64,000 nt of DNA from Kiritimatiellia bacterium (GCA_034178815.1 JAXFQS010000084.1:2112-66111); one strand, 5' to 3'; shown: positions 40,866 to 63,250, counted from the stretch's first letter. Program-made: numbers and translations. The notes: generated by a model not told the origin, from the sequence alone.

Positions 40866-40875
40866 CGGGGGCGGA

Positions 40876-41634
40876 TTAGGCGAGCGTCTGGCGGTAGGCG
40901 GCGAGGGCTTGTCGAATGGTCTCTGCCGCGTTGCCGTAGGAGTTGGCGAAGGAGGGTTTGTGTCCGAGGGTAAGGCCCACGACATCGTTGAAGACGAGTA
41001 TGGTGGCATCGCAACGGTTGCCGGAACCGCAGCCGATGACGGGCACGGGGACGGCTTTGGCGATGGTTTCGGCGGGCTCTTCTGGTACGCATTCGAGGAC
41101 GATGGCGAAGGCTCCGGCGGCGGCGAGAGCTTGGGCATCGCGGGTTAGATTGGCGACGGCTTCGTCGGTTTTTCCTTGGCGGGAGAGGCCGGTGACGAGG
41201 ATGGATTGGGGGGTCAGTCCAATATGTCCGAGCACGGGGATTCCGTTCTGGACGAGGCGGCGAACGAGGGGGGCGCGGATGGCACCGCCTTCGAGTTTGA
41301 CGGCATCGGCGCCGGCTTGCTGGAGGTAGGTTCCGGCGTTGCGGAGGGCCTCGTCGTCGGAGATCTGGTAGGAGAGGAAGGGCATATCGGCGACTACTAG
41401 GGCGTCTTTGACTCCGCGCACGACGGCGGCAGTATGATGGAGCATAATGTTCTGCGTGACGGCGAGGGTGTTGGGATAGCCGAGCACGGTGTTGCCGAGC
41501 GAGTCGCCCACGAGGATGAGTTCGAATCCGGCTTCATCGGCCAACTGGCCGGAGACGGCGTCGTAGGCGGTCACGCAGGTGAATCGGCGAACGCCTTTGA
41601 GGGCGGAAATCTTGGCTGTGGTCCATCTCTTCAT
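40876..41634 (-). CDS. panB: 3-methyl-2-oxobutanoate hydroxymethyltransferase (ketopantoate hydroxymethyltransferase)
   Basis: TAYD, VGDSLGN, ADMPFLSY, VKLEGG, GHIGLTPQS motifs. Confidence 0.9.
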   Translation of the reverse strand: MKRWTTAKISALKGVRRFTCVTAYDAVSGQLADEAGFELILVGDSLGNTVLGYPNTLAVTQNIMLHHTAAVVRGVKDALVVADMPFLSYQISDDEALRNAGTYLQQAGADAVKLEGGAIRAPLVRRLVQNGIPVLGHIGLTPQSILVTGLSRQGKTDEAVANLTRDAQALAAAGAFAIVLECVPEEPAETIAKAVPVPVIGCGSGNRCDATILVFNDVVGLTLGHKPSFANSYGNAAETIRQALAAYRQTLA

Positions 41635-41708
41635 GCCTCACAGTATAGCACACTCTCGGGCGGGTGGGAATAGATTTTGAGCCGCGGGTGGGGGCAATCG
41701 GACGGCTA

Positions 41709-41877
41709 GCGGCGGGGCGACGAGAAGGTTGACAGGAGTTCTGCGAGGTATCCTTCTCTCAGTCCTTGGGAGCAGACCTCCAGTTCGCGGGCCTGGAGGC
41801 GTTTGACCAGGCGCATGAGGATGGACATACCGGGGAGGATGGTGTGGATGCGGTGGGAAACTTGGCTCAGGATGAGG
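41709..41877 (-). pseudogene. ppx: 3'-terminal remnant of exopolyphosphatase (Ppx/GppA) gene, approx. 56 codons
   Basis: translation ...ILPGMSILMRLVKRLQARELEVCSQGLREGYLAELL resembles end of Ppx/GppA actin-like domain II (E. coli PPX ...[35 protein letters not shown]); different frame from ppk fragment. Confidence 0.5.
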
Positions 41878-42729
41878 TCAATCGCGGCGCGGTCGCCCTT
41901 GGCTAGGCTGTTCCACAGTTTCCTCAGCCCGTCGGCGCATGAGGTCGGCCATAAACTCGCGGTAGTCGCGTTCGCCGTCGTATTCGCGGTCGGGGTCGAT
42001 GTCCGCGTTGCGGGCCAATCGGAAGAGGGTTGTCTCGCGCAGGGTGCAGTCCGGGAAGGCGTTGGCGGCGCAGAGGCGGAGGATCTCTTCTGAGAGCGCG
42101 AAGCGGCTTTTCCCGGGCAGGACGAGGAGTCTGGGCACGGCGGGAAGGGCACAGGAGATGAAGCCTAGGCGGGTTTTCGACGCGACATCTCCGCGGCGTC
42201 TGGCGAGCACGGCGAGGTAGGTTTCGCGGTCGCGCAGGAAGGGGGGGGGTCGATGTTTGCCGAGCAAAACGACGGAGAGGGTGTCGGCCATTTGTTCGCG
42301 GAAAATCGTCCGGGCGGCGGCTTTGTCCTGCGCGCTCCATTGGTTCGCGGGGACGATTTCGGTTGCGGCCTCGCGTTGGAGGGTTTCACGGAGATGACCC
42401 CACACCTCGGCGCGAAACGCAGAGAGACGCTGGACTTCCGAGCGGGCGGCGGCAAGTTGCTCGGCGACGGACAGACCCGTTTTTTCATCTGGTTCGCCGC
42501 CCAACTGCAGGCGGTCGACCAAGGCTCCGATGCGGACTTTGAAGAACTCGTCGAGGTTGGTCTGGAAGATAGAGAGGAAGGCGAGCCGTTCGCAGAGCGG
42601 CACATCGTCCCGGGCGGCCTCGCCGAGCACGCGCTCGCTGAACTTGAGCCAACTCAATTCGCGGTTGATGAAGAGGTTCTGCCGCGCCTCGGCGGGGAGG
42701 CTGTCCAAAGAGGGGTTGCGCTGATTCAT
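41878..42729 (-). pseudogene. ppk: polyphosphate kinase 1 truncated after N and head domains (catalytic C1/C2 domains absent)
   Basis: PPK1 N-domain FINRELSWLKFSERVL, LAFLSIFQTNLDEFFKVR, head domain through ...NADIDPDREYD...MADLMRRR; ORF stops after approx. 285 of approx. 700 expected residues and panB begins 243 nt downstream. Confidence 0.65.
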
Positions 42730-42841
42730 CACGCCGACACAATCGCACAATCGTGTTAGGGTTGTGTCAGCATTCTGCAGGCGGCGCGATTGGTGCGCAC
42801 CTCTAGCCCCCAAAGATACCCACCTCGGTTCCCCCTTCCAG

Positions 42842-42866
42842 CCAACCTCCGGGCCCCGAAGGTTGG
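42842..42866. repeat. palindromic element CCAACCTCCGGGCCCCGAAGGTTGG; motif family member
   Basis: seen directly. Confidence 0.55.
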
Positions 42867-42893
42867 CACCCGCCGGACGCGACGGAAGGCGGT

Positions 42894-42930
42894 GAAAAAG
42901 AGGGCCGCCGGCATTGCCGACGGCCCTCGA
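42894..42930 (-). terminator. intrinsic terminator (12-bp stem, U5) downstream of giant secreted protein gene
   Basis: minus-strand RNA GAGGGCCGUCGG-caaug-CCGGCGGCCCUC-UUUUUC. Confidence 0.5.
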
Positions 42931-42945
42931 CTGCCAAGCGGACGC

Positions 42946-45900
42946 CTAATCGCCTAGCAGACGCTTCCAAGCCTTTTCGACCGCGGGCATCGACGACTCC
43001 GGAACGCCCAGCGCCTTGAGCACCTCGCGCGCAATCAGCCGGTGCCCGGCCGCGACCGGATGCACCCCATCGTAAGTGAAATGCCGCTCACCCGTCTTCG
43101 GCAGTTTTGCCAACGCCTCCACCTCCGCCCGCCGACAGTCCGCATAAGGCAACCCCCGGCGCTTCGCCTCGGCGCGGATGAAGTCGGCGAACAAATCGAG
43201 TTGGCGATTCTCGTCATTGTCCGGATTCTCCTGAATGAGCGTCGGCGTCAGCGGCACGACCAGCACCCCCGCACGCGCCGCCTTGTCGTAGATCTCCCGC
43301 ACATTCTGCTCATACGCCTCAAGTTCCACCCCGCGGCCCCAGTCATAGCCCCAAATGTCATTCACCCCGCAAGAGACCGTCAGCACCTTCACCTCGGGAT
43401 TCGAGAGAATTCCGCCTACCCGGCCGAGCATATCCCCCGCATTCTGCCCATCGCATCCCGCACGCACCGCCCGCACATCCTTGACGCCCACCGCATCAAG
43501 CCCCGCCAGCACCAGAGCGATATACCCCCTATCTCCGCCCCCCAGACGCGTAATGGAATCGCCCAAAAACGCAATCGTCTCCCCCGCCTTCACGCGAATG
43601 CCGCGCACTCCGGCCCTTGCTGGCGACGCCACAAACCCGTTCGGGCGCTCGAACCGCTGCCGCTCATAGAGTTCCGGCGGCGGGACGGCAGAACCCAGCG
43701 AGCACATCGTCCGAGTCGAGAACCCATCCGGAGCCGTCCGCCGCACGCAAAACCGACCACCCAAAATTCCAAACTCCTTCAAGAGAACATTCCCCGGCCA
43801 ATCAACTGCCGCCGCCTCGCCCCGACTGCGAAGCGCCCCCATCCACCACCGCCAAGCCGTCCCCGTCACCAGCAGTCCGCCCCCCCCTCGGACAAACTCC
43901 GCCAGTTCCGCCGCTTCCCCATCCTTGAGCGACGAACCATCCACCTTCCGGAATCGCCCATTGACCGAAAGCCACCGCACAATCTGCTCACGAAGCCCCC
44001 TGTTCTCAGGCAGTTCCAGCGACTCCGAATCATCGGCAACATAGACCACGCGCCCCTTCCCCGCCCCCCCTGCTGCAGCCACACACGCCGCCGAACGATC
44101 CCAATTCCTCGCAGCAAAAAGCGGGAACGCCCCCTTCCCCGTGCAATAGACCGAGCCCGCCAAACCATTCACCTTGAAATAACGCGTTCCCGCCGTCAAC
44201 TCCGCCCGTGCCGCGAGTTGCTCAGCAGTCAGCGGCTCCGCCCAAGGCGCAATCTGAGATTGAGGCGCAACACAGTCTGACACGCACACCCGGAACCCCG
44301 TCGCGCCGTGGCCAATCACCGGAGCCGTCTTGCTTCCCAGCCGCCGCCCCCAGGCCGCACAACTCCCTGGATCACCATAGCAAAGCACCGAACCGCCTTT
44401 CATCACACGCCGCCCCTTGTGGCTTCGACTCTCATCGCGAGGCCCCACAGGATCCGTCCCGGAACAGTCCAACAGGCTCTCCGGCGTATTGTGGAAATCA
44501 AGACAGTGCTCAAACAGATTTCCGTGCATATCGTAAAGCCCCCACAGGTTCGGCCGGTACGACCCAACCGCCGCCGGACAAGCCACCCCGCCACAGTTTC
44601 CGCTGTAGCGCCCCAGCGTATCCAAAACGCGATCCCGCTTGACGCTCATAGGCGGCTTGGCATCCTTCACCTTGTAAGGCGCCGCCGCCTCTCCAGTCCC
44701 CCAAGGCCCCTCGCATCCGGCACGACACGCCCACTCCCATTGAGCCTCGGTCGGCAAATCGAAGTCGGCACGAAATCCCGTCAATTCGCGCAGACGACCG
44801 AAAAAGGAGTCGGGCGCGACCTCATATCCCGAGAACGGCCAGCAGATACCGTCGGATGTATGTCCACGCGTATGGCTGTAAGAAATTCCGTTGACAGGAA
44901 GGCTCCCCCGAGCCTCCGAATGCCCGAAGGTGTCCCCGCGCCATGCCCCCATAATGTGGAACCACTGCCTTTGAGTCACCTCGTAAACCCCGATATAATA
45001 GGGGCGGGTCAAAGTCACCCCATGACGCGCATCAGCCCCAGAAGAGAGTTGCGGATTGCCCAAGAAGACCTCGCCGGGCGTAGGTTCGATTCGGCGCAGC
45101 AGCAGCCAATCACCCTTCCACCGCTCGGCCTTCTCTCCTTCTGGCACAGACTCGCGAGTCGGATAGAGTTCAATTTTCCCCTCGTCCGGCCCCGTTAGGC
45201 AGACGCCCATATAAAGTCCCTTTACCGGAGTCGTCGCCAGCGGCTTGTACGGTTCCCGAACCAACCCTCGAACTAGTCCGTCCGGAGCCTTCGCATACTG
45301 GGAACAGTGCCGCGCAGCCGCCTCGGATACCGGCAACGACCACTGACGCATCACAGCCGCAAGATCCTGCTTCACGGCGGCGGAAAACTCCCGGGCGAAG
45401 ACATCCCACTTATCTCCATTCGTACGCGGCACCGCAAAGCCAGGCTTTCGGTAAACGGCGAACACCCGTGCCATCGCGTCCCACCCATAGGTTTCCACCA
45501 GTCTGGCGTAAAACTCAAGCGCGAGGAAGGGATCTTTTTTCCAACTCTCGAAGCGTTTACCCGACGCCACCCACTGCCGCACTTTGGCATCCGCGACGGC
45601 ACGGGCTGTCGCGAAACCGTTCTCCCGGAAACTGCGTCCGGAGACTTTGGATATGCCCAACAGGGTGAAGAGGTTGACGGTGACTTCAGAGGTTCCTTCA
45701 GGCGTCCAGGCGGGATTCTGGTGATTGTGTCCGATCTCGTGGTAGACGCCCCAGGCTTGGGCTCGTTCCAACGCCTGACGGTCGAGGATTACCGCCGAAG
45801 GGTTGCGCCGATTGACTAGAGCCATCATGGGATAGCCGTCGTGAAGGACTCCGATCCCTTGCAATTGGATGTCGCTGCAGAGGCGTTCGGGAGAACGGCG

Positions 45901-47478
45901 AGAAGGCAAACCGGAGAGCCACTGGCAAGCGTCGAGATAGCGATCCCAGTAGGCCGCGACCCACTCGGGATCCTTGCATTGCGCCAGGCCGGTGGTCTCG
46001 AAGGTGATGATGTAGTTGAGGCCTTCAATTTCCCCCTGCGGCGCACCAGTCTGGCGGCACTCTTCGAAGAATCCCTCGGCGGTATCGCGTCCCAGTTTGA
46101 ACCAGGGCGCCATCACGGCTCCGTCAATGCGGACTTTGAAGCGTTTGCCCGCGGCGGGGGGCTGGTCGGGGACGATGATGTAGACGAGTCCGCCGAATGG
46201 GGAGGTCAACTCGACGCGGGATTGTAGCACAGGCGCCTCGGTGGTGACAAGCGGAAAACGCTTCCAGCCCTTGGCCGCGCCGGAGAGGTCATCCTGGGTC
46301 GTGCCGATGCGGATGCGGAGGTTCCAGTCGGCGGCGCCCTCGGGGAAGGTAAAGGTTATCCGGCTACCTGCCGGGGCGAAGAGTCCTGTCGAATGCCAAC
46401 GCGGAACATCAGGTTCGATTTCAATCTCGCGCGAGACGGTCGGGGTTCCGGGCTTGACCAGACCTGGATAAACTTCGGCGGCGGGGTCGGCGGGCCAATG
46501 CCTGAAGCGGTCGGTCTCGTAGGCGGCTTTGCGGGCAAGGATGGCAAGTCTGGCGAAGATGTCTTCGGGTTCCACGGGATGTTCCGGGGAGGGCACTTTG
46601 GCGGCGTCTGGGTGCTTAGCGAAAGCGGCAATCTTCTCCAGCACGCCTTGAGGGAGCGAGGGGGGCAGGACGGCGGCCATTTGGGAGAGGACGACGGCTA
46701 CTTGCCGTTTCTGTTCGCGGCTGGAATAGGTGTTTTTGGCGGCAATCTGGAGTGCGTCGTCGGCGCGGGTACCGTCGGGCACGGTCTGGGGATCGAGCGG
46801 GAAGCCCTGCTTGTCGGGGCGGACGATTCCGATGTCGCCCATCAAGATGCCCATAGGGCCGAAGGTGCGATTGTCTCCGAAGTCGTCGGCGAAGGAGACG
46901 GCCCGGGAGCGGCTGGCGATTTGCTTCCAGCCCCAGCCGAGTCCGGCACCGAGGAGTCCGCCTCCATTGCGGACGAAGTCGAGATAGGCGGGGGCGTTCT
47001 GGACGGTGAAGTCGATGGAGGCGATGAGGTCGTAGCGGGGAAAGTCGGCGGTATCGGCGACGAGGGTGGATTCAATTCCGGCGCGCTTGAGGGCGTTTCG
47101 GATGGAGGGGTTTCGGTAGACGCCGATTTTGGGGGCGGGCTTGTTGCGCGAGAGCCAGCGGACGGCATTGCGGTGGAATGCTAGGGTATCGTCGGAGAGT
47201 TTGCCGTGGGTGAGGAAGGAGGGGTGTCCGAGGTAAATGGCTCGACCTTTGCCGTAGATTGCTCCGGCGGCGGCGAAGGTCGCGGTACCGTCCCAGTTCT
47301 TGGCGCGGGCGATGGGGAAGGCTTCGTCGGAGAGGACGAGCACGGTGCCGGGGAGACCGTCGCAGTTGATGGCACGGACGCCTTCGGCGAGTTCTTTGGG
47401 GAGCGTGGCGGAGGCGGCGTGCAGCACGGGGGCGAGAAGGGCGCCGAGGAGGAGGTTTTGAAGCAGTCTATTCATCAT
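42946..47478 (-). CDS. 1510-aa secreted multidomain protein: ThuA-like domain, M60-like/enhancin zincin peptidase domain (HEIGH), FGE-sulfatase (SUMF1-like) domain, second ThuA-like domain, C-terminal SGNH/GDSL hydrolase
   Basis: signal peptide MMNRLLQNLLLGALLAPVLHA; M60-like YHEIGHNHQ...E; FGE motifs RPYYIGVYEVTQRQW, GSYRPNLWGLYDMHGNLFE, KGGSVL...GFRVCV; SGNH block I IAFLGDSIT and block V DGVHP. Confidence 0.65.
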   Translation of the reverse strand: MMNRLLQNLLLGALLAPVLHAASATLPKELAEGVRAINCDGLPGTVLVLSDEAFPIARAKNWDGTATFAAAGAIYGKGRAIYLGHPSFLTHGKLSDDTLAFHRNAVRWLSRNKPAPKIGVYRNPSIRNALKRAGIESTLVADTADFPRYDLIASIDFTVQNAPAYLDFVRNGGGLLGAGLGWGWKQIASRSRAVSFADDFGDNRTFGPMGILMGDIGIVRPDKQGFPLDPQTVPDGTRADDALQIAAKNTYSSREQKRQVAVVLSQMAAVLPPSLPQGVLEKIAAFAKHPDAAKVPSPEHPVEPEDIFARLAILARKAAYETDRFRHWPADPAAEVYPGLVKPGTPTVSREIEIEPDVPRWHSTGLFAPAGSRITFTFPEGAADWNLRIRIGTTQDDLSGAAKGWKRFPLVTTEAPVLQSRVELTSPFGGLVYIIVPDQPPAAGKRFKVRIDGAVMAPWFKLGRDTAEGFFEECRQTGAPQGEIEGLNYIITFETTGLAQCKDPEWVAAYWDRYLDACQWLSGLPSRRSPERLCSDIQLQGIGVLHDGYPMMALVNRRNPSAVILDRQALERAQAWGVYHEIGHNHQNPAWTPEGTSEVTVNLFTLLGISKVSGRSFRENGFATARAVADAKVRQWVASGKRFESWKKDPFLALEFYARLVETYGWDAMARVFAVYRKPGFAVPRTNGDKWDVFAREFSAAVKQDLAAVMRQWSLPVSEAAARHCSQYAKAPDGLVRGLVREPYKPLATTPVKGLYMGVCLTGPDEGKIELYPTRESVPEGEKAERWKGDWLLLRRIEPTPGEVFLGNPQLSSGADARHGVTLTRPYYIGVYEVTQRQWFHIMGAWRGDTFGHSEARGSLPVNGISYSHTRGHTSDGICWPFSGYEVAPDSFFGRLRELTGFRADFDLPTEAQWEWACRAGCEGPWGTGEAAAPYKVKDAKPPMSVKRDRVLDTLGRYSGNCGGVACPAAVGSYRPNLWGLYDMHGNLFEHCLDFHNTPESLLDCSGTDPVGPRDESRSHKGRRVMKGGSVLCYGDPGSCAAWGRRLGSKTAPVIGHGATGFRVCVSDCVAPQSQIAPWAEPLTAEQLAARAELTAGTRYFKVNGLAGSVYCTGKGAFPLFAARNWDRSAACVAAAGGAGKGRVVYVADDSESLELPENRGLREQIVRWLSVNGRFRKVDGSSLKDGEAAELAEFVRGGGGLLVTGTAWRWWMGALRSRGEAAAVDWPGNVLLKEFGILGGRFCVRRTAPDGFSTRTMCSLGSAVPPPELYERQRFERPNGFVASPARAGVRGIRVKAGETIAFLGDSITRLGGGDRGYIALVLAGLDAVGVKDVRAVRAGCDGQNAGDMLGRVGGILSNPEVKVLTVSCGVNDIWGYDWGRGVELEAYEQNVREIYDKAARAGVLVVPLTPTLIQENPDNDENRQLDLFADFIRAEAKRRGLPYADCRRAEVEALAKLPKTGERHFTYDGVHPVAAGHRLIAREVLKALGVPESSMPAVEKAWKRLLGD

Positions 47479-48428
47479 GGTTTCTCATTGGATGGTTCGA
47501 GAACAAGGCGAAATCCGACGGCCGCATGGCGCGTAGAGGGGTTGCACATATCGCCGAGCCAGCGGGCGTAACTGGTGCAGGCGGAGTTGCTGCCGAAGAG
47601 GTAGTTCCAGTAACTTCCGGAGCGCAGGACGCGGGTCTTGCTCTTGGAACTTGCCGGGCCCTTGGGATTGTCTCCGGCGTAGGCGGGGTGGCCCGCGGGG
47701 GCGAACCAGTCGCGGCAGAATTCGTAGGCGTTGCCGTGCATATCGTAGAGTCCCCAGGCATTGGGGCGGTAGGAGCCGACAGGGGCAGGGCCGTTGGTGC
47801 AGCCTCCGTTGGCGAAGTAGCGGCCGAGGCGGTCGAGGGCGTGGTCAGACCAGTAGGGGATGGGTTTGCCGTCGGGGCTCGGACGGTCGTAGGGTTGAGC
47901 GTCGGAGCCGTCGTTCCAGCAGGTGTCGGTGCCGGCGCGGCAGGCGACCTCCCATTGGGCTTCGGTGGGCAGATCGAAGGGGAGTCCCGTGCGGGCGCGA
48001 AGTCGGCCGAGAATAGAGTTGGTGGCGACGGCGGGGCCGCTCTTGGGCCAGTCGATGCCTTCGCGCAGGGAGCCGCGCAGGTCATTGTAGGAGAGATTCA
48101 AAGCCGGGAGCGGCCCCGTATCCTGCGTACCTCCGAGATGGTTTAATTGGCTCCTTGTGGTCTCGAAGATGGCTATGAAATAGGGGCGGGTGATGCGAAC
48201 CTTACGGGCCTCATCGTTGGCACCTCTGGGGGCGGCGGGATTGCCGAGGCGGATGGGTTCGGGCGTGGGATCGACGCGACGCATCAACACCCATTCATCG
48301 CGCCAGCGGGGGCTCGCTTCGCCGCCGGGAATCGCTTCGCGGGAGGGATAGGTTTCAACCTCCGCAGGGCCACCACCGATACGAACCGCTAGATAGAGCG
48401 CAGAGGAAAGTAGCAAAATGGGATTCAC
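47475..48428 (-). CDS. FGE-sulfatase (formylglycine-generating enzyme/SUMF1-like) domain protein, paralogous to FGE domain of downstream giant protein
   Basis: GTG start with GGAGG 9 nt upstream, overlapping sigma stop (GTGA); motifs RPYFIAIFETTRSQ, DLPTEAQWEVACRAG, GSYRPNAWGLYDMHGNAYEF, RSGSYW...GFRLV. Confidence 0.6.
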   Translation of the reverse strand: MNPILLLSSALYLAVRIGGGPAEVETYPSREAIPGGEASPRWRDEWVLMRRVDPTPEPIRLGNPAAPRGANDEARKVRITRPYFIAIFETTRSQLNHLGGTQDTGPLPALNLSYNDLRGSLREGIDWPKSGPAVATNSILGRLRARTGLPFDLPTEAQWEVACRAGTDTCWNDGSDAQPYDRPSPDGKPIPYWSDHALDRLGRYFANGGCTNGPAPVGSYRPNAWGLYDMHGNAYEFCRDWFAPAGHPAYAGDNPKGPASSKSKTRVLRSGSYWNYLFGSNSACTSYARWLGDMCNPSTRHAAVGFRLVLEPSNEKP

Positions 48429-49462
48429 TTGAGAACTCCTCCCCCGGCCACCGTCGCGAACGACCCGTTCATGCGCCAGGCAGGCGGGTTGGGCGAGCAT
48501 TCGAGATCCAGAAGGCGAACCCCGAAGACCCCCTCCGTGCTGGGTTTCTCCGCCGTCAAAGGCGCGACCGAGGCGTTCAGTCGGGGAGTCGCGACCCGCC
48601 CCCAAATATCCTCCCCGATCTGAACCAACAAGAGATTCGCCGTAAAGGTGCCCGACGGTGTGGATACTTCGCACGGTGCCATCAGAACCGCGCCATCGTT
48701 GACAATCGAGGGGCGGATGCGCTGCTTGCAGAGTCGGTCGGAGCAGAGATAGATGTCTGCCGAAAGCCCTTGAATCGCCCCCAGCCGACGCCCCGGGCAG
48801 ACCAGTTGAAGCCCGTCGCCCAGCCAGATTTCCTGCCGCATCACGCGCCCGGAGGGGCGCATCAGATGGATGCCGAGAAGGAGTCCCGCCGCCGCTAGAA
48901 GCACTAGGCAACTCTTTCCGATCGCGCGCGCTGCCGGAGTTTGGAGCAACCCGCCAAGATAGATGCGTGCATAGTGCAGGCGGGACTTGACGGTGCCTTC
49001 CGGGATAGAGAGGATTTTGGCAATCCGCGCCACCGGGATGTCCATAAAATAGTGCATCAGGATGGCTTCGCGCATCTCTTTCGGAAGCGAGTCGATGCTC
49101 TTGCGCAAGGTTTCCGCGTCCAGGCCTTGGCCCAACCGATTGGTGCTTTCCGTATCGGTCGATTCGGGCGGGGAGTCGGTCACCACCATCCTCTTGAAGG
49201 CCTGCGTGCGCACCATCTGGAGGTGAAAGTTCCGCAGAATAGCCGAGAGCCAGGCGTAGAAGGAGTCGGCAGAGCGGCAGGTATCGATTCGTTCGATTGC
49301 CCGCTCGAAGGTACGGAACACCAAGTCCTCCGCCGTGTGCGCGTCCACCCCGAAAGCGCGGGCTTCGGCCTTGAGACGGGTGCGGTACCGCGCCACCATC
49401 AGACGCGCCCCGCGCTCCGCATCGGTGCGTATCGCCAAGAGTATATCGTCCGTATCTTCCAT
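48425..49462 (-). CDS. ECF (sigma-70 family) sigma factor fused to a C-terminal transmembrane helix and approx. 135-aa extracytoplasmic domain
   Basis: region 2 (FERAIERIDTCRSADSFYAWLSAILRNF) and region 4 (LPKEMREAILMHYFMDIPVARIAKILSIPEGTVKSRLHYAR), then TM SCLVLLAAAGLLLGIHLM, then non-cytoplasmic tail. Confidence 0.6.
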   Translation of the reverse strand: MEDTDDILLAIRTDAERGARLMVARYRTRLKAEARAFGVDAHTAEDLVFRTFERAIERIDTCRSADSFYAWLSAILRNFHLQMVRTQAFKRMVVTDSPPESTDTESTNRLGQGLDAETLRKSIDSLPKEMREAILMHYFMDIPVARIAKILSIPEGTVKSRLHYARIYLGGLLQTPAARAIGKSCLVLLAAAGLLLGIHLMRPSGRVMRQEIWLGDGLQLVCPGRRLGAIQGLSADIYLCSDRLCKQRIRPSIVNDGAVLMAPCEVSTPSGTFTANLLLVQIGEDIWGRVATPRLNASVAPLTAEKPSTEGVFGVRLLDLECSPNPPAWRMNGSFATVAGGGVLK

Positions 49463-49464
49463 AA

Positions 49465-51879
49465 CTAGAGGTTGATTTCGTTGACCCCCGCAGATAGGTT
49501 CCTCACGAGCCCATTCCAACGTAGCACCGCCGGCAGCCCGTCGGGCACCACCACGCGACCGGAAAGTTTAGTCCCCTCGAAATGCAAGTCGCAGACGAGT
49601 TTCCCCTTCGGGTGCGGAAAGGTCGAACGAATCCACTTCAATGGGCCCGGCTGGGGCGCAATCTCGACCGACGAAAAACCGTATTCCGTCGGGCGAATCC
49701 CACACAGCAGCGTCTGGAAATGGAACGCTGGATGCGCCGACCAGGCATGGCAGTCGCTCCGCGTCCCAAGCCAACCTTCCTCCGGCGTCGTCGCGAATCC
49801 GTACGCCACCGCCTCACGCCAGATGCCTAGCCGTTTCAGGAACAAATCGGGACGCCCCACGGCCTTGTAGGCCGAAAACAGATAGTGGGAAAAATAGATG
49901 CCCGTGCGTACCAGCCCACCCCCTTCGCGCGTAGCATTCGCCTCCAGCGCCGACACCACTCGGGGCAACTGGTTCGTATCAAACGCCCCGACGAGAATCC
50001 CCAGAGCCTGCGCATGCTCGGTAAAGACCTGTCCCCCTGGATCATCGGCTATCAACCCCCTTGCTTCGTTCCAAAACCGCCGCATCACGCCTTGCACGCA
50101 ACGCGCAGAATGCTTGCGAAGTCCCGCCGCAAAATCCAGGTTTCCCGCCGCTGCCTCCGCATCCGCCGCCCTCAGTAGCGCCAACGCCCAATGCAAAGTG
50201 ATGGGTGCCGTCAGCCTCGGAGTCTTGCCCTGAATATGCCCCCAATCTAGAAAACACCACCCCGGAAGATACTCGAGAATTCCCTCCGCATTCTCGTACT
50301 GCTCAATCGCAGCAAGCGTATGACGCATCCCCGGAAGCATCTTCCGAAGACCCGGCAAATCGTCACGCCACAGGGCATAATCTCCCACCGCCATCGGTAG
50401 ACAGATAGAATAGGTTCCCGACTCCTGAAGGCGCCTGCTGGGGGTATTCATAGGCAGGAATCCGTCCCGGAAGCGCGAATCGTCGAAGAGCCCGATAGCC
50501 CTTCTCACGAGGCGGGCGTCTGGCGTCATCGCGGCCGAGACAAGCCAATCAACCCGGCTGTCTCCGCCGTACATCTGCTGTTCAATGAAAGGGCAGTCGA
50601 AGAACATCTCGTGGGAACACATCTCCATCGCCCGATTGCAGATTCGGTTGATCTGCGCGAGTTGGGAATCGCTTGCCTCGAAGGCATTCTCCGCATCGGC
50701 AGGGTAGCGCGTCTCCTCTAGGACAAGACGCTTCAAAGTGAGCGGATCATCGGCTGTTTCAACCGTCAGCACGCTCCACCTTCCGCAGCGCCACCAAGGC
50801 GTAGTGAAGGAGGCGTCCTGTCTACCGTCTGGAAGAAAGGTGTCTTGGAAAAGCCCCGGCACAATCTTGCCCTCTCGCTGGTTCCTGCGCCCCTTCTGCC
50901 CCGCCACCTTGTCGCTTTGGCCGTCCGGAATCACGAGCGATTCGGTCCAGCCCCAAGCAATCTTCGCGCCCTTCCCGCCTCCGACATGGAGTTGGGGATA
51001 GAAGCAGAAGTAGTTGCCCAAGTCAATCACGAACTGCCGTTTGGAGTGGGCGGGAACGACCAGCAGAGCATCCTTCGAAAGGAGTTCGTCAAAGCCTTTG
51101 TCTCCCGAGATTCCAACGCGCCGCCGCGCGGCGAGCTGGTCAGGGATATCGGTCGGCCAAAGGCGCAGATCGCGCTCTTTGCGTACGCCGCAAGCGTGCC
51201 GTTTGGGTATTGGAGTTGCAACGATGGAGGGAGTATACAGTTTTTCGGGGAGTGCGTCAAGAAAAGAGGTTCCGGTGATTTGGACTTGGTGTCCGCCGCC
51301 CCAACTGCCGCCGCCGGGACCGCACGCCTCCATGGTGGAAAGGAGTCCGCATTTCCAGGCGCCTCGGCCTGTGGTGAGAAGCGGGTCGTAACTACCGGAT
51401 GCCTTGAGGATGAGGCGGGCGCGGCCGGAACTCAGCTGCGCCAACGGGGCGGCCTCACCCATTTGGGTGACAATAACTTTGAGGTTGTGCCGCCCTGGAT
51501 CGAGGTCGATGCGATAACTCTGGTAGAACCAGCGCGCGGGGGTGCCTCTATGCGGTCCACGGGCGAGGAGTCTGCCGTCGAGGAAGAGCCAAAAGCGCTC
51601 ATCCGCGGAGATGTCGATTTCCAGCGGTTCGTCGCCTTGTCGGTCGAAATCGCAGGTATAGTATTCGACATTGACCTTGCGGTGGCGCGGGGCGGGGCCA
51701 TTGGCGGCAATCCACCTTGCCTGGTCGATGGGGGTCATCGCGACGAGGTTGACATTGCCGGGAATGGGCGGCGGATCGCGGAAGATCTGTTCGACTTTAT
51801 TGGCAAAGCCCCCCGTCGCGAGGATGGCGAAAAGGGTAGCGGGGAGCAGGCGGTCAAAGCGGGGGAGTCCGGGTTGCAT
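49465..51879 (-). CDS. secreted alpha-L-rhamnosidase-like glycoside hydrolase (GH78 family, six-hairpin catalytic domain)
   Basis: signal peptide MQPGLPRFDRLLPATLFAILATGGFA; N-terminal beta-sandwich domains; C-terminal (alpha/alpha)6 region (DCPFIEQQMYGGD, WALALL, EEGW); start at internal Met. Confidence 0.55.
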   Translation of the reverse strand: MQPGLPRFDRLLPATLFAILATGGFANKVEQIFRDPPPIPGNVNLVAMTPIDQARWIAANGPAPRHRKVNVEYYTCDFDRQGDEPLEIDISADERFWLFLDGRLLARGPHRGTPARWFYQSYRIDLDPGRHNLKVIVTQMGEAAPLAQLSSGRARLILKASGSYDPLLTTGRGAWKCGLLSTMEACGPGGGSWGGGHQVQITGTSFLDALPEKLYTPSIVATPIPKRHACGVRKERDLRLWPTDIPDQLAARRRVGISGDKGFDELLSKDALLVVPAHSKRQFVIDLGNYFCFYPQLHVGGGKGAKIAWGWTESLVIPDGQSDKVAGQKGRRNQREGKIVPGLFQDTFLPDGRQDASFTTPWWRCGRWSVLTVETADDPLTLKRLVLEETRYPADAENAFEASDSQLAQINRICNRAMEMCSHEMFFDCPFIEQQMYGGDSRVDWLVSAAMTPDARLVRRAIGLFDDSRFRDGFLPMNTPSRRLQESGTYSICLPMAVGDYALWRDDLPGLRKMLPGMRHTLAAIEQYENAEGILEYLPGWCFLDWGHIQGKTPRLTAPITLHWALALLRAADAEAAAGNLDFAAGLRKHSARCVQGVMRRFWNEARGLIADDPGGQVFTEHAQALGILVGAFDTNQLPRVVSALEANATREGGGLVRTGIYFSHYLFSAYKAVGRPDLFLKRLGIWREAVAYGFATTPEEGWLGTRSDCHAWSAHPAFHFQTLLCGIRPTEYGFSSVEIAPQPGPLKWIRSTFPHPKGKLVCDLHFEGTKLSGRVVVPDGLPAVLRWNGLVRNLSAGVNEINL

Positions 51880-51925
51880 ACACTCTATTAGATGCGCCGG
51901 GACGCCTTTGGGTTCACCGCCCAAT

Positions 51926-53842
51926 CTAGTAAATGAGGATTCCGGAGGGGAGTCGGCAGTCTCTTCCGAGCACTTCGATTTCGCTGAAGGTCGAGCAGGT
52001 GGAGTCGAGCACGCCGAAGGCAATCCGGATGGCTGTCGCGCGGGTGAACATAAAGTCGCCGCCGGGGGCGCTGATTTCTGCCTTGAGGGCCCCCGAACTC
52101 GTCGCATCGTCGACGCCTACGGTGTAGGCCTGAACCGTATCGACGCGTCTAAAGAAGTCCTCTCCTTCGTAGCGGACATAGAGGGTGTCGATTGCGATGC
52201 CATCTCGTAAAGCGTTGTAGAAGTAGGTCCAAAAGCGCAATCCGCTGATGTCTTTCGGGGATGCGAAGGTGCATTCGGCGACTGCGTAGCTGCCAATCGG
52301 GTAGATGGCACCGACAAGGTTTTTATCGCCTTTGACGATTCCGTTGGTCAACACGCTCACATCGTTTGTGCAGCCGTAGAGGGAGTTGTGAACCTCATTG
52401 GTGATGAAGGTGAAGGTACTCTCCTTGTGGCGCAGGAGATTACCGGCGGCGGGCAGGAGGATTTCCGAGGAGGAATCCCAATCGGTCGCGCGCCAGTCGT
52501 ACTTCGGCGCGAGGAATCGGGTGGCGCGAACTTCCATCAGTCCGGCGCCGGAGTTGTCGGCTCTGCCGAAGGCGACGCAGAAGGCTTTGGCCATTGGCGC
52601 GAGCGGAGCGGTGGGATCCGGGCAGTAGGCGCGAAGGAGATAACACTTGTCGGAAGCGTTGTTGTCCAACCCAACCGAGACTGGGTCTAGGGCGATGGTG
52701 TGCCAGGCGTCGTCGGCCGTCTGGTAGGAGAGCGAAACGATTTCGACGCCGTCTCTTCCGCCGTCGCTCCAGCGGGTGTACAATTCGAACGAGCCGATGT
52801 CCTGCGGGTAGGGTAGCGTGAAGGTCAAGGAGCCGTTGTCGCCCATTCCGTAGAAGGCGGCGGTGTTATTGTTTGCGCAGACATTGTCGACCAGCGCGGC
52901 CAGATCGCTATGGGTCGCCACGGCATCCGCGACCGTGCCTTGTTCGCCGGAGACGGTGGCGCCCTCTTGCGCGAAGAGGTTCAACTCCTTCAGTTTCGGC
53001 TTGACGGCCGACTCGGTCCAAACGCTGGTCTCCCAGTAGGGGGTGCCTTTGGGGACATAGACGGGCTTGACGATGGTGTCGCCAATGATGGTGGTCAGAT
53101 CGGTATCCCACTTGAGAAAAACCTGACCGTCGACCGCCGGAGGTTCCGGCGCCAAGGTGGTGACATCGCTGCCGGATTCGACTTCGTCCAAGGTCTTGAT
53201 GGTCTGACCGTCCTGGTCGAGGAAGGTGACGGTATAGGTGGAGGCAACGCTCACCGAGCCGATGACCTCAACTTCGACCAGCGTAGTGCCATTGTTGTGC
53301 ATCGTGCCGAAGGTCACCACCAGCCGCTCGGCATCCGTTGCAAAGTTCGAACCATCGGTATTGGCTAGATTGTACCAGTACCCATTCTTGCCCGACGGCT
53401 TGTTCTCGTAGGGAGCGCTCAAAATTGGCTTGGAATTCCCACTCGAGACGGCTTCAATCGAGTTGACCTGAATGCCGACGCGCCCCTTAGAGCCGTAAAT
53501 CCAAAAACGCAAGCGGGAGAGATTCGCCTTGCCCGGAAAAATAATCGTCATCACCGCATTGTCGCCGACCGAATAGGCTAGCCCCGCTGCAGCACCTTTG
53601 GGAATCACCCCATTGTTCAAGACCGAAGCATCACCCAGCGTAGCCGCCGCCCAGGCCCCCTCATTGCCCGAAAAAGAGAGTACCGTTCCTGCCGCGAGCA
53701 TCAAATTGCCCTCCTCCGCGCTCGTCGCCGTCGTGGCGGAAGTGAATGTGCCGTCTGTCCAGACAGGATCAGCAAAAACCGGCAACGCGAAAAACAGGCA
53801 GACCATCAGTCGCAATCGTTTCATAATGAACCTCCGTGTCAA
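51926..53842 (-). CDS. secreted protein with three tandem approx. 180-aa beta-sandwich repeats (carbohydrate-binding-module-like, discoidin/F5-8 type C-like)
   Basis: signal peptide MKRLRLMVCLFFALPVFA; repeated pattern SRLRFWIYG...EVEVIG / GSFELYTRW...MEVRA / SGLRFWTYF...EIEVLG. Confidence 0.4.
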   Translation of the reverse strand: MTRRFIMKRLRLMVCLFFALPVFADPVWTDGTFTSATTATSAEEGNLMLAAGTVLSFSGNEGAWAAATLGDASVLNNGVIPKGAAAGLAYSVGDNAVMTIIFPGKANLSRLRFWIYGSKGRVGIQVNSIEAVSSGNSKPILSAPYENKPSGKNGYWYNLANTDGSNFATDAERLVVTFGTMHNNGTTLVEVEVIGSVSVASTYTVTFLDQDGQTIKTLDEVESGSDVTTLAPEPPAVDGQVFLKWDTDLTTIIGDTIVKPVYVPKGTPYWETSVWTESAVKPKLKELNLFAQEGATVSGEQGTVADAVATHSDLAALVDNVCANNNTAAFYGMGDNGSLTFTLPYPQDIGSFELYTRWSDGGRDGVEIVSLSYQTADDAWHTIALDPVSVGLDNNASDKCYLLRAYCPDPTAPLAPMAKAFCVAFGRADNSGAGLMEVRATRFLAPKYDWRATDWDSSSEILLPAAGNLLRHKESTFTFITNEVHNSLYGCTNDVSVLTNGIVKGDKNLVGAIYPIGSYAVAECTFASPKDISGLRFWTYFYNALRDGIAIDTLYVRYEGEDFFRRVDTVQAYTVGVDDATSSGALKAEISAPGGDFMFTRATAIRIAFGVLDSTCSTFSEIEVLGRDCRLPSGILIY

Positions 53843-54120
53843 AACTTAAGCCTCTAAGATTTAAAGATGCGCCCAATCAAAACCTAGTTCAAACAAAATT
53901 CACAAAATCAGCCACAACTGCTCCATCCCGCCCTCCAATGGCGCAAAAGATTCCTACCCCCGCCCCCAAAAGGAATCTATCACCGCAAACCTTTTCCAAA
54001 TACCCCTTACCCCCGTAGGTGTCAACCAACGCCAGCCACTCAAAAATACCATCTCAAAAGAGGCGGAAAACGCCAATCGCCACGCCCTTCCTGCTCAACA
54101 TCCGCCCCGCCAAACACCAG

Positions 54121-54158
54121 AACAAAAAAAAGGCGCGACCAAAAATGGCCGCGCCTCA
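54121..54158 (-). terminator. rho-independent terminator of proB operon (10-bp stem, U8)
   Basis: minus-strand RNA AGGCGCGGCC-auuuuu-GGUCGCGCCU-UUUUUUUU immediately downstream of proB stop. Confidence 0.7.
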
Positions 54159-54184
54159 AACACCTTTCGATATGGCAGATAGGC

Positions 54185-55003
54185 TCAGAACGGAGCCGAG
54201 AGAATCAAAGTACCCTCATCCTCCCCCGCCACGATTCGCGTCAGCACATTACGATTCCGCCCCCCCGCGATAACCACGCTTGAGCCTGCCTTGACGGCAA
54301 TCCCAGCCGACTTGAGTTTAGAATCCATTCCCCCCTTCGAAAGCGCATTCTTGATCGGACAGACCAGTTTGAACGCACTGCTGTCCAACTTCTCAATCAA
54401 GGGAATTCGCATCGGCGATTTCGCACTCATATCGAGCAGACCGTCGACCGTGCTGAGAATGCACAACAGGTCGGCCCGCGTTAGTTTCGTCACCAAAGCA
54501 GCCAAATAATCATTGTCGCCGAAAGACATCCCCGCCTTCAACTCCTCGTCGGCAACCACATCATTCTCGTTCACGATTGGCACCACTCCCGCCCGAAGCA
54601 AATGGTCGAAAGTGCGCCGCGCATTGGCCAAACGCAAACGATTCTGGAAGTCCGCGTGCGTCAACAAAACCTGCCCAATGTTGACCTTCCGGGCGAGAAA
54701 CAACTGCTCGTACTGCGCAATCAGCCGTGCCTGCCCCACGGCCGCGCACATTTGCTGATCCGAGAGCAGCGTCGGCCGCTCTTTGATCCCCAACGCTTCC
54801 ATTCCCGCGGCCACCGCGCCGGAAGAGACAAGAATCACATCATAGCCCTTCTCCCGCAACTTCGCTACCTGGTCCGCAAGGCTGGTCAAATACTTCAGTT
54901 CCGGGCACCCGCTCTTCGAGACGATCACCCGAGAACCAACCTTGACGACAATACGACGGGACTCTGAAAGAATCTCCCGATAACGCTTTTCTGATAGATC
55001 CAT
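54185..55003 (-). CDS. proB: glutamate 5-kinase (short form without PUA domain)
   Basis: RIVVKVGS, amino-acid kinase fold motifs (VILVSSGAVAAG, GDNDYLAALV), approx. 272 aa. Confidence 0.85.
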   Translation of the reverse strand: MDLSEKRYREILSESRRIVVKVGSRVIVSKSGCPELKYLTSLADQVAKLREKGYDVILVSSGAVAAGMEALGIKERPTLLSDQQMCAAVGQARLIAQYEQLFLARKVNIGQVLLTHADFQNRLRLANARRTFDHLLRAGVVPIVNENDVVADEELKAGMSFGDNDYLAALVTKLTRADLLCILSTVDGLLDMSAKSPMRIPLIEKLDSSAFKLVCPIKNALSKGGMDSKLKSAGIAVKAGSSVVIAGGRNRNVLTRIVAGEDEGTLILSAPF

Positions 55004-55010
55004 AGTTTGA

Positions 55011-56486
55011 TTAGGCACTGTAAGTGGTGGAGGTCGTGCTCCCGCCCGTAGCCGTCCAAATGTGGTGGAAAAACTCGCCCCTAGGAGCATCCGTGCGCTC
55101 GAAAGTGTGCGCTCCGAAGTAATCCCGCTGGGCCTGAAGCAGATTTGCCGGCAGGCGCGCGCTGCGGTAGGAATCATAGTAGTTCAACGCAGTCGACATC
55201 GCCGGCACGGGAATCCCCCACTCCACCGCGCACTTGACCACATTCCGCCAAGCAGCCTGCCCCTGCGAGAGAATCCTGCTGAAATAGCCGTCCAAAAGAA
55301 GGTTCGGCAGAGCCGGATCCTTCTCGAACGCCGCCTTGATTTCACCTAGAAAACGCGCCCGGATGATACACCCTGCACGCCACACCAGTGCGATTTCCCC
55401 GTAGTTCAACTCCCACTTGTACTCCTCCGCCGCCGCGCGTAGCAGTTGGAACCCTTGCGCGTAAGAGCAGATTTTGGATGCGTAGACAGCTTTCTCCAAA
55501 TCCCTTACAAACTCCGAGACCCCAACCTTAGCAGCAACGCGTCTCGGTCCTGCCAACCGTTTGGACGCCTCCACTCGTTCCTCTTTGATTGCGGAAAGGC
55601 ACCGGGCGAAGACCGCCGCGGCAATCTGCGGAATCCCGACGCCCAAATCAAGTCCCGCCTGACTCGTCCACTTCCCCGTTCCCTTCTGCCCGGCCGTGTC
55701 CAGAATGACATCCACCATCGGCTTGCCGGTCTGCGCATCCTTTTGCTTGAGGATTTCCTGGGTAATGTCAATCAGATAACTGTCGAGTTTGCCCCTGTTC
55801 CAGCGCGCAAAGACCTTCTGCATGGCCTTGACATCCAGCCCGAGCCCCCTCGCCATCAGGTCGTACGCCTCGCAAACCAACTGCATGTCGCCGTACTCAA
55901 TGCCATTGTGGACCATCTTGACAAAATGTCCCGCGCCATCGGCGCCCATCCACGCGCAACAAGGCGAGCCGTCGGGCGCTTTGGCGGCAATGGACTGGAA
56001 GATTCGGCGGATGGACGGCCACGCTTTCTTGTCGCCCCCCGGCATGATTGCAGGCCCCAGCAAAGCCCCTTCCTCGCCGCCAGAGACCCCCGAACCGACA
56101 AACCGGATGCCCTTCTCGGCAAGCGCCTTCGCCCGACGAATCGTGTCGGGATAGTGGGTGTTTCCGCCGTCGATCAGAATGTCGCCCTTCTCCAACTCCG
56201 GGAGCAACGACTCGATGGTCGCGTCCACCGCCGCGCCAGCCTTCACCATCATCATAATGCGCCGAGGCTTGGCGAGGGAAGCAACGAATTCCTTGACAGA
56301 GTGGCAAGGAATGACCCTCTTTCCTTTGCCCCTTCCCTGGACAAAGGTGTCCACCTTCGAGACCGTTCGGTTGAAAACCGCGACCGTGAAACCATGGCGC
56401 TCCATGTTCAAGACAAGGTTTTCCCCCATGACCGCGAGGCCTATCAAACCGATGTCGGCAAGGGATTTCTTTGCAGGCTTTTTCAT
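55011..56486 (-). CDS. gnd: 6-phosphogluconate dehydrogenase, decarboxylating
   Basis: Rossmann N-terminus IGLIGLAVMGENLVLN, GSGVSGGEEGA, conserved C-terminal dimerisation domain. Confidence 0.9.
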   Translation of the reverse strand: MKKPAKKSLADIGLIGLAVMGENLVLNMERHGFTVAVFNRTVSKVDTFVQGRGKGKRVIPCHSVKEFVASLAKPRRIMMMVKAGAAVDATIESLLPELEKGDILIDGGNTHYPDTIRRAKALAEKGIRFVGSGVSGGEEGALLGPAIMPGGDKKAWPSIRRIFQSIAAKAPDGSPCCAWMGADGAGHFVKMVHNGIEYGDMQLVCEAYDLMARGLGLDVKAMQKVFARWNRGKLDSYLIDITQEILKQKDAQTGKPMVDVILDTAGQKGTGKWTSQAGLDLGVGIPQIAAAVFARCLSAIKEERVEASKRLAGPRRVAAKVGVSEFVRDLEKAVYASKICSYAQGFQLLRAAAEEYKWELNYGEIALVWRAGCIIRARFLGEIKAAFEKDPALPNLLLDGYFSRILSQGQAAWRNVVKCAVEWGIPVPAMSTALNYYDSYRSARLPANLLQAQRDYFGAHTFERTDAPRGEFFHHIWTATGGSTTSTTYSA

Positions 56487-62928: not shown

Positions 62929-63250
62929 TTCGATCCTTGTGTAAGTAGAACTGACGGTCAAGTCTACCTTTTTGGAGAACTGATGTCAAGGAAAGTGTTG
63001 GAGACCGCCCCGAGAACCCCAGCGGAATCGGGTTGCCGCCTCCGAGAAGGACGCATTCCACCCCAAAAAAGGCCCCGGTTCACCCCGCTTCGTCCCCGAG
63101 AGATTCCGCCGTATTTCTCTTGAAAGCCGATGGACCTTGCGCTACACTATGGGAAGAGGCTGTTGCCGGTCTGCACCGCGCCGACGCAAAAAAAGTCGCT
63201 CAACCATCAAAAAGTCCGCACGGTTTTGCCGCCGGACTGTTTACAGGAGT

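Follow-up and report, generated by a model that had tools for sequence, protein, structure and literature searches.

In a 64,000-nucleotide stretch of DNA from a gut Kiritimatiellia metagenome-assembled genome (MAG) (GCA_034178815.1 JAXFQS010000084.1:2112-66111, hereafter the window), five co-directional and tightly packed genes on the minus strand, bracketed by two strong intrinsic terminators, place an extracytoplasmic function (ECF) sigma factor fused to a transmembrane (TM) helix directly ahead of a protein with the fold of the formylglycine-generating enzyme (FGE), among secreted enzymes that act on glycans and glycoproteins. The reading toward which we lean, by a modest degree, is that the membrane-tethered sigma factor is freed by proteolysis, with the FGE-fold protein acting as a periplasmic ligand-binding co-sensor in the position of RseB, and that the whole forms an autoregulated operon for glycan or glycoprotein degradation. 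The gene order runs from a secreted beta-sandwich protein through a GH78-like enzyme, the ECF sigma factor and the FGE-fold protein to a 1510-residue M60/FGE/SGNH enzyme:

51926..53824, minus strand: secreted 632-residue protein with a signal peptide and a weak Flg_new repeat match (open frame to 53842)
49465..51879, minus strand: GH78-like six-hairpin glycosidase, 804 residues, with a signal peptide (Pfam Bac_rhamnosid6H 67 bits, Bac_rhamnosid_C 33 bits)
48425..49462, minus strand: ECF sigma factor, 345 residues (sigma2 at residues 22-88, sigma4 at 118-166, then a TM helix and a C-terminal domain)
47475..48428, minus strand: FGE-sulfatase-fold protein, 317 residues, GTG start, hydrophobic N-terminus, without the catalytic cysteine pair
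42946..47478, minus strand: secreted multidomain enzyme, 1510 residues (TCAF_N-like, M60-like_N, Peptidase_M60, FGE-fold, second TCAF_N-like and SGNH esterase domains)

A gap of 46 nucleotides (nt) separates the first gene from the GH78-like gene and one of 2 nt (TAGTTATG) separates the latter from the sigma gene, after which the sigma stop codon overlaps the FGE start in GTGA and the FGE stop overlaps the start of the 1510-residue gene in ATGA. These reading frames and junctions, first listed in an earlier note made from the sequence alone, were reproduced exactly, and the single operon proposed there agrees with one transcription unit that has a terminator at each end.

The fused sigma factor and its conserved partner gene

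Pfam matches of the sigma factor to Sigma70_r2 (36.7 bits) and Sigma70_r4_2 (47.9 bits) both exceed their cut-offs, and the ECF superfamily model TIGR02937 scores 66.2 bits against a cut-off of 42.9, with sigma2 and sigma4 as the sole sigma domains, as befits a group 4 sigma-70 factor; no specific ECF subfamily model in NCBIfam reaches its cut-off on this protein. One strong hydrophobic helix follows at residues 180-202 (Kyte-Doolittle 2.09), and AlphaFold2 places the last sigma4 helix at residues 155-173 and the membrane helix at 181-199, with about 7 residues between the end of sigma4 and the membrane helix and no Pfam domain match between the two. Such a short connection leaves no space for an anti-sigma domain, and the window sigma has neither an anti-sigma nor a zinc-finger domain between sigma4 and the membrane. 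The remainder of the protein, about 140 residues, is predicted as a confident beta-sandwich (predicted local distance difference test, pLDDT, 83).

48857..48925, minus strand: single TM helix of the sigma factor, residues 180-202 (hydropathy and AlphaFold)
48428..48856, minus strand: orphan periplasmic beta-sandwich of the sigma factor, residues 203-345 (predicted fold)

The helix and the predicted sandwich bear out the earlier suggestion that this sigma spans the membrane and carries an extracytoplasmic domain. A single polypeptide thus combines sigma domains, a TM helix and an extracytoplasmic domain, as in the hybrid ECFs (IutY/ECF243, ECF48/52/53). We regard the C-terminal domain as an orphan since an exhaustive profile search with it against 1.84 billion representative proteins returned only three strong clusters, all of them sigma-fused. 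By BLAST, the periplasmic domains of the other sigma and anti-sigma groups described below show no similarity to it, and its identification with the anti-sigma domain of the L054 type was rejected on this ground.

For comparison, 80 related loci were assembled from homologue look-ups and from scanning GTDB at one genome per species; almost all belong to gut or rumen Kiritimatiellae MAGs. The sigma factors occur in four architectures:

Architecture A: a sigma of 314-345 residues with the orphan domain, then an FGE-fold protein of 317-341 residues at a 4-nt overlap
Architecture B: a sigma of about 300-345 residues with a TM helix and another short extension, then an FGE-fold protein of 400-470 residues
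Architecture C: a sigma of about 590 residues with a TM helix and a large domain, then MoxR-DUF58-BatA
Architecture D: an ordinary short sigma, then a separate single-pass anti-sigma-like protein, in some loci followed by an FGE-fold protein

All five genes of the operon stay together in relatives whose sigma is 52-90% identical. Among the short fused sigmas an FGE-fold gene is present in the operon in 12 of 12 cases, directly adjacent in 11 and with one gene between in L040, and it is present in none of about 20 group C loci. The adjacency of sigma and FGE genes that the earlier note had proposed for a conservation check is therefore strongly conserved across gut and rumen Kiritimatiellae, the scope being Kiritimatiellae-like MAGs. 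The pair is also kept with other cargo, namely a SASA esterase (L008) or Metallophos proteins (L021, L024), and in L010 the gene upstream of the pair ends in a discoidin-like tail. In the split systems, sigma, anti-sigma and FGE genes are followed by large unknown proteins (L054, L065, L066) or, as a three-gene unit, by housekeeping genes only (L074, L075). Large tandem-FGE relatives show no linkage to a sigma gene.

Several observations on these relatives stand apart from the argument. Group C comprises about 20 species (L014, L016, L017, L022, L023, L026-L028, L030-L035, L037-L039, L044-L046; e.g., L016:10001-17823), with faint prenyltransferase/SQHop_cyclase_C matches in the periplasmic domain, MoxR-DUF58-BatA (Bat/aerotolerance-like) always downstream and the clade promoter motif upstream. 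Two longer fusions were seen, a 1383-residue protein that begins with an ECF sigma and whose long extension weakly matches DUF642 (L036:124-4275) and a 492-residue fusion in the same sigma clade (L047:17-1495). L054 is labelled as a Firmicutes genome (a Limosilactobacillus gorillae bin) and holds Kiritimatiellae-type sigma, anti-sigma and FGE genes at 82-88% DNA identity to the Kiritimatiellaeota MAG contig L066, and L068 (a Lachnospiraceae bin, labelled Firmicutes) has a short clade sigma with the clade promoter motif upstream; both are probably mis-binned contigs. The Firmicutes-labelled L070 and L071 give a weak sigma match at 31% identity. Many fused sigmas and anti-sigmas of the clade share a conserved C-terminal tail, 4-5 hydrophobic residues and then Arg/Lys (VVITFR, MLIIR, MIIIFR, LMVVFR), as seen in P0009, P0011, P0013-P0016, P0018 and P0019, in the L029 sigma and in the L054, L065 and L074 anti-sigmas; sigmas of the window lineage mostly end in GG-x-R/K in place of it. 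Such a tail might serve as a strand for docking or as a tag recognised by a protease or PDZ domain.

The 317-residue partner matches Pfam FGE-sulfatase (PF03781) at 92.5 bits and the human, Streptomyces and Thermomonospora FGE structures with E-values from 1e-9 to 1e-11, and NCBI labels it "SUMF1/EgtB/PvdO family nonheme iron enzyme." At the position of human FGE Cys336, this protein and all group A partners have Asn; in group B the partners in L011, L021, L024 and L025 have 0 cysteines at both catalytic positions (Cys336, Cys341), and the L029 partner keeps one, at the Cys341 position. FGE catalysis requires O2 and Cu(I) held by both cysteines. By Pfam, a sulfatase was not found in the operon or in the flanking genes checked, and in L001 a nearby sulfatase adjoins a radical-SAM/SPASM gene, which is probably the anaerobic sulfatase maturase. 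Taken together with the gut-anaerobe hosts, these features argue that the FGE partner is not a sulfatase maturase, as the earlier note had supposed. Its nearest relatives outside the FGEs (NCBIfam, PDB) are the non-catalytic PorK/GldK, PvdO and a Treponema variable protein.

The partner aligns from end to end with a segment of the M60 enzyme encoded downstream (residues 755-1066; 43% identity, E 1e-71), and this M60-embedded domain is closer to the group A partners (42-47% identity), with which it clusters, than to those of groups B and D (30-34%). Judging from these alignments, the partner is a paralogue of the FGE domain inside the enzyme. Loci with more similar sigma domains also tend to have more similar FGE partners (pairwise identities, r = 0.79), and no sigma-FGE fusion protein ("Rosetta stone") was found among the top 120 FGE homologues.

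The RseB-like gene position, directly after the sigma or sigma and anti-sigma genes, is found in all short fused-sigma and split lineages examined, with a partner whose fold is FGE-sulfatase and not that of RseB (LolA-like). Group B partners carry a clear signal peptide together with an extra N-terminal Ig-like domain, and the export signal is clear in group D as well and weak in group A. At 2.2 over 11 residues, the hydrophobicity of the N-terminus of the group A protein comes close to that of the clear signal peptides of the operon (2.3-2.7). This N-terminus has no basic n-region, however, and overlaps a predicted strand of the domain, so that export of the protein is deduced mainly from the group B and D relatives. 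Of the proposal that the FGE protein is a "partner or anti-sigma component," the conserved pairing holds; a strict anti-sigma is unlikely, since relatives have cleavable signal peptides and the split systems hold a separate anti-sigma-like membrane protein, both of which point to a third, periplasmic component.

The relatives also bear on how the fusion came about. At 52% identity (E 1e-19), the extension of the L029 fused sigma (residues 223-345) matches the free-standing L074 anti-sigma (residues 94-216), and group C fused sigmas retain the juxtamembrane "FxDRLxxxxRRR" motif of small anti-sigma proteins. We conclude that the fused sigmas descend from sigma/anti-sigma pairs that lost the cytoplasmic part. 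The FGE partners of L029 and L074 are 66% identical and their sigma domains 37%; on these identities the periplasmic sensor domain and the FGE partner travel together. A further comparison concerns L054:4576-6297 and L066:5954-7676, which share 87.6% DNA identity from the sigma gene through the anti-sigma gene into the FGE gene, as far as ~157 nt (~50 codons) from its start. Past this point homology ends, with 42% identity in the FGE domain and different cargo, and we read the pair as a cassette swap with its recombination breakpoint inside the FGE gene.

Two side observations touch on these systems. The three-gene unit of L074 is flanked by a 90-nt palindromic repeat (4584-4673 and 7405-7494, 93% identical, in direct orientation), and an IS200/RAYT-like Y1 transposase gene (Y1_Tnp) lies just upstream (L074:3880-4506); the repeats may be REP-like (repetitive extragenic palindromic) and may mobilise or recombine the sigma/anti-sigma/FGE module. 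Anti-sigma-like proteins also show a second internal hydrophobic, signal-peptide-like segment (e.g., MIVRKMATIVGAAMVSVAVPA-EE) about 40-70 residues past the TM helix, seen in the anti-sigmas L054:5142-6143, L065:4557-5507 and L074:5319-5969 and in the sigma extension of L029:1705-2742. By analogy with RsiV, this segment is possibly an internal signal-peptidase (site-1) cleavage site.

Candidate promoters

The upstream regions of the operon orthologues have TTTGAAC-N16-GCATC in common, with a conserved GAAC-type -35 element, a conserved -10 element and non-conserved spacers. Two copies of its core lie in the operon:

53866..53893, minus strand: P1, candidate ECF-type promoter, TTTGAAC-N16-GCATC, about 40 nt before the first gene (core motif 53866-53891)
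51891..51916, minus strand: P2, candidate promoter, TGAAC-N16-GCATC, in the 46-nt gap, 11 nt before the GH78 ATG

A P1-type motif, again with a non-conserved spacer, has the same location in L018 and L001/L020, and P1 is present in only some lineages. P2 lies 10-11 nt from the ATG where this was measured (L001, L004, L007) and is held in the equivalent gap of L018 and L019; its distance of 11 nt from the GH78 start codon implies a near-leaderless mRNA. Scanning 1.47 Mb of related loci plus the window on both strands with the core TGAAC-N16-G[CT]AT[CT] gave 52 matches, against about 3-6 expected from base composition, and approximately 45 of the 52 lie on the coding strand directly ahead of a sigma gene or sigma operon, with each of the four architectures represented.

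Within the 64-kb window the core motif occurs exactly 2 times, each in an intergenic gap of the operon and on the correct strand, and a sigma-70 consensus scan of the upstream intergenic region gave no convincing housekeeping promoter. The two copies, at the first gene and at GH78, suggest that the operon is probably autoregulated and its own regulon. We conclude from the motif pattern that GH78-sigma-FGE-M60 would be a positively autoregulated unit driven from a near-leaderless promoter, which the first gene would have joined through P1.

Cargo enzymes and neighbouring genes

The likely true start of the first gene is the ATG at 53824, preceded by a GGAGG Shine-Dalgarno sequence (frame 51926-53842), and orthologues at 45-83% identity hold the equivalent operon position. 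Its product possibly consists of three putative galactose-binding-like beta-sandwiches. The label of a triple carbohydrate-binding module (CBM) given to it previously was not borne out, as Pfam gives no CBM family match and a BLAST self-comparison shows no internal repeat. The GH78 assignment of the second product, which has no match in NCBIfam, agrees with Pfam, where the six-hairpin catalytic domain and the C-terminal beta-sandwich each score above cut-off. The main domains of the 1510-residue enzyme are as follows:

45337-46122, minus strand: Peptidase_M60 domain with HEIGH motif (Pfam; motif read in the translation)
44281-45216, minus strand: FGE-fold domain (Pfam FGE-sulfatase)
43015-43575, minus strand: SGNH esterase domain (Pfam Lipase_GDSL_2, 75 bits)

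M60-like_N and Peptidase_M60 score 156 and 55 bits in Pfam and the HEXXH motif is present as HEIGH, giving this enhancin/TCAF-type zinc metallopeptidase an active-looking sequence. In the SGNH domain, block I (GDSIT) and block V (DGVHP, the DxxH block) are legible in the translation, and the embedded FGE domain has two cysteines at the catalytic positions with a spacing of 6 residues instead of 4 (GSVLCYGDPGSC). The M60, FGE and SGNH domains that had been named for this protein are each matched in Pfam. The "ThuA" flanks are not: the Pfam scan gave no such match, and orthologues bear precomputed PF27016 TCAF_N matches. On these family annotations, the combination of an M60-like peptidase, an SGNH esterase, a GH78-like glycosidase and a secreted beta-sandwich protein suggests an O-glycosylated glycoprotein or proteoglycan, possibly rhamnose-bearing and acetylated, as substrate, and the mucin/pectin-like substrate proposed earlier is plausible from M60, GH78 and SGNH.

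54130..54157, minus strand: upstream intrinsic terminator (of the amino-acid-kinase gene), 12-bp stem followed by a T8 tail
42900..42928, minus strand: intrinsic terminator closing the operon, 13-bp stem with 11 GC pairs, followed by TTTTT

The first of these terminators implies that the operon is insulated from transcription arriving from upstream, and the 13-bp stem of the second fits the clean intrinsic terminator described before. Upstream neighbours are housekeeping or unrelated genes (amino-acid kinase, 6-phosphogluconate dehydrogenase, short-chain dehydrogenase, TsaE), and downstream lie a polyphosphate-kinase fragment and genes resembling polyketide synthases (PKS); Rfam families are absent from 41500-55500. 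The polyphosphate kinase reading frame (41706-42813, minus strand) encodes 311 residues with the N-terminal and middle domains and has overlapping open frames in other phases, so the gene may be frameshifted or truncated. The large PKS/PUFA-synthase-like (polyunsaturated fatty acid) genes at 36172-41138 (minus strand) include a 1144-residue protein with ketosynthase, acyltransferase, dehydratase and phosphopantetheinyl transferase domains. A second ECF-type sigma gene, of ordinary length (219 residues), lies at 63137-63796 on the plus strand and has no TGAAC-N16-GCAT motif nearby.

Proposed mechanism, alternatives and known systems

In the mechanism that we favour, the sigma factor would be held inactive by being pinned to the cytoplasmic membrane, and the FGE-fold (C-type-lectin-like) protein would be exported to the periplasm as a third component, in the position that RseB has in rpoE-rseA-rseB. 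There it would bind the same glycan as the paralogous module in the M60 enzyme and, via the periplasmic sandwich of the sigma, would gate the access of site-1 and site-2 proteases. Proteolysis would then release the sigma from the membrane to drive P1 and P2 in positive feedback, with the M60 peptidase/SGNH esterase, the GH78-like glycosidase and the binding protein as output. Regulated proteolysis through RseA, RseB, DegS and RseP is an established precedent (PMC8103513), as are the sigma/anti-sigma hybrids IutY and ECF48/52/53, with proteolytic control proposed for IutY and ECF52 (PMC8999054). A bolder version, which we put forward tentatively, is that the FGE/C-type-lectin fold represents a new class of periplasmic glycan sensor for ECF signalling in Kiritimatiellae, duplicated from the regulated enzyme, which on binding its ligand would license the proteolytic release of a sigma inactivated by its tether only and would be exchanged in swappable sensor-plus-cargo cassettes.

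A number of points weigh against the favoured mechanism. Contact of the FGE-fold protein with the periplasmic domain of the sigma, and its binding of glycan, are what we infer; proteolytic release is by analogy only, the operon encoding no protease; and P1 and P2 are known as a sequence motif from DNA alone. A positively charged n-region is missing from the N-terminus of the group A FGE proteins (fMet-NPILLLSSALYLAV), and one stretch of this N-terminus lines up with a beta-strand of the domain within the M60 enzyme. FGE-fold proteins are also very abundant in these phyla (at least 3455 matches), with FGE-fold genes further downstream in L024 and far from any sigma, and the joint exchange of FGE domain and cargo between L054 and L066 suits a specificity module and cargo equally well.

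The last of these points lead to the main alternative, which we consider less likely. Here the FGE-fold protein would be no regulator but the first and best-conserved product of the regulon, secreted and lectin-like, with a binding or accessory role alongside whichever enzymes are encoded after it, and the periplasmic domain of the sigma would do all the sensing. It fits a huge secreted family with extra paralogues in the same operons (L024), an M60 enzyme that has an FGE copy built in, the exchange of FGE domain together with cargo behind a sigma and anti-sigma that are ~88% identical (L054 vs. L066), and the situation in L074, where the FGE protein is the sole downstream gene and hence possibly the sole output. 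It fits less well with the FGE gene being the only one that stays by the sigma (or sigma/anti-sigma) in the short fused-sigma lineages, at 11 of 12 adjacent and L040 one gene off, with the 4-nt start/stop overlap of sigma and FGE genes in group A, with the covariation between L029 and L074 of the FGE with the periplasmic sensor domain and not with the sigma domain, or with the missing sigma linkage of the large tandem-FGE relatives. A sigma that is active while membrane-bound, in the manner of ToxR or CadC, with ligand binding recruiting RNA polymerase to the membrane-proximal operon and no proteolysis involved, seems improbable to us. The window sigma has no anti-sigma domain to keep it inactive, and co-transcriptional insertion of operon products that are all secreted or membrane proteins would hold the locus near the membrane; however, judging from known holoenzyme structures, ~7 residues between sigma4 and the membrane would leave little room to dock the beta-flap and the -35 element. 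Pro-sigma-K is activated through proteolysis. All characterised membrane-linked ECF systems use proteolysis as well (PMC8999054, PMC8103513).

That the 317-residue protein is a genuine formylglycine-generating enzyme maturing sulfatases, or a cytoplasmic anti-sigma binding sigma2/sigma4, is in our view very unlikely indeed. The 92-bit Pfam FGE-sulfatase match, its NCBI name and its weak N-terminal signal speak for one or the other. Against an enzyme stand the loss of one or both of the cysteines on which the O2- and Cu(I)-dependent reaction is established to rely, the operon without sulfatase, and relatives from anaerobic gut and rumen MAGs, where the L001 sulfatase adjoins a radical-SAM/SPASM gene instead; against a cytoplasmic anti-sigma stand the cleavable signal peptides of homologous partners and the separate anti-sigmas encoded in split systems.

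These considerations matter because Kiritimatiellae abound in guts and rumens, where they break down complex and host glycans, but hardly any have been cultured, and the regulation of their enzyme repertoire is essentially unknown. The locus offers a concrete regulatory module with a candidate promoter consensus that can be searched genome-wide for regulons, a sigma whose inactive state seems independent of any anti-sigma domain, and a hypothesis for the very numerous "FGE-like" proteins of the Planctomycetes-Verrucomicrobia-Chlamydiae (PVC) group, which are routinely mis-annotated as sulfatase-maturating enzymes. If the mechanism is true, sensor-plus-cargo cassettes swapped behind a constant sigma/anti-sigma core (L054 vs. 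L066) would amount to a modular regulatory grammar for the phylum, similar to polysaccharide utilisation loci (PULs), and a compact ligand-gated sigma and promoter pair would be a useful orthogonal switch.

Among known systems, the Escherichia coli rpoE-rseA-rseB operon (ECF02) is alike in having a sigma, then a membrane-spanning partner, then a periplasmic third component, with the sigma autoregulating the operon, and the split relatives L054, L065, L066 and L074 have exactly that three-gene order. There a periplasmic ligand-binding protein gates site-1/site-2 proteolysis (PMC8103513). The window differs in that the sigma is fused to the TM helix and periplasmic part with the cytoplasmic anti-sigma domain gone, in that the third component is FGE/C-type-lectin-like instead of having the RseB fold, and in that the output is glycan-degrading enzymes and not envelope repair. 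Likewise, in IutY (ECF243) and the actinobacterial ECF48/52/53 (e.g., SCO4117) one chain carries an ECF sigma, at least one TM helix and an extracytoplasmic domain. Activation occurs, or has been proposed to occur, when proteolysis cuts away the extension, and ECF52 bears a carbohydrate-binding domain (PMC8999054). In these hybrids, however, an anti-sigma or zinc-finger domain separates sigma4 from the membrane, where the window sigma has ~7 residues, its orphan periplasmic domain is unrelated to theirs, and no FGE-fold partner is described for them.

SigI/RsgI of the cellulolytic clostridia is alike in logic, in that an extracellular module related to the binding modules of the enzymes senses the polymer and activates an alternative sigma, and its carbohydrate sensing drives degradative genes (PMC10575876). 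SigI is not an ECF sigma, however, RsgI is a separate anti-sigma with an RsgI_N domain, and the sensors are classical CBMs and not FGE-fold proteins. PorK/GldK, GldJ, PvdO and Treponema TvpA share an FGE-sulfatase fold without the Cys-Cys copper site, used in periplasmic or surface structural or binding modules, but the window protein scores far under the family cut-offs (GldK 47.6 bits vs. 350) and its operon is without genes for the type IX secretion system, pyoverdine or diversity-generating retroelements. In Bacteroides PULs, an ECF sigma within a host- or plant-glycan utilisation locus induces that locus. The setting is similar, a gut bacterium with an ECF sigma embedded in a glycan locus, whereas the window has no SusC/SusD, TonB-box transducer or FecR-type anti-sigma, and its sigma is itself a membrane protein.

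Our literature searches that paired ECF or sigma factors with FGE-sulfatase, formylglycine, sulfatase-modifying factor or Kiritimatiella brought up no relevant work. Fusions of an ECF sigma to a membrane-spanning part are known already, and so are three-component systems of sigma, anti-sigma and periplasmic modulator; what appears to be undescribed in the searchable literature is a fused sigma free of an anti-sigma domain, with an orphan sensor domain and, systematically, an FGE-fold third component paralogous to the enzyme under its regulation.

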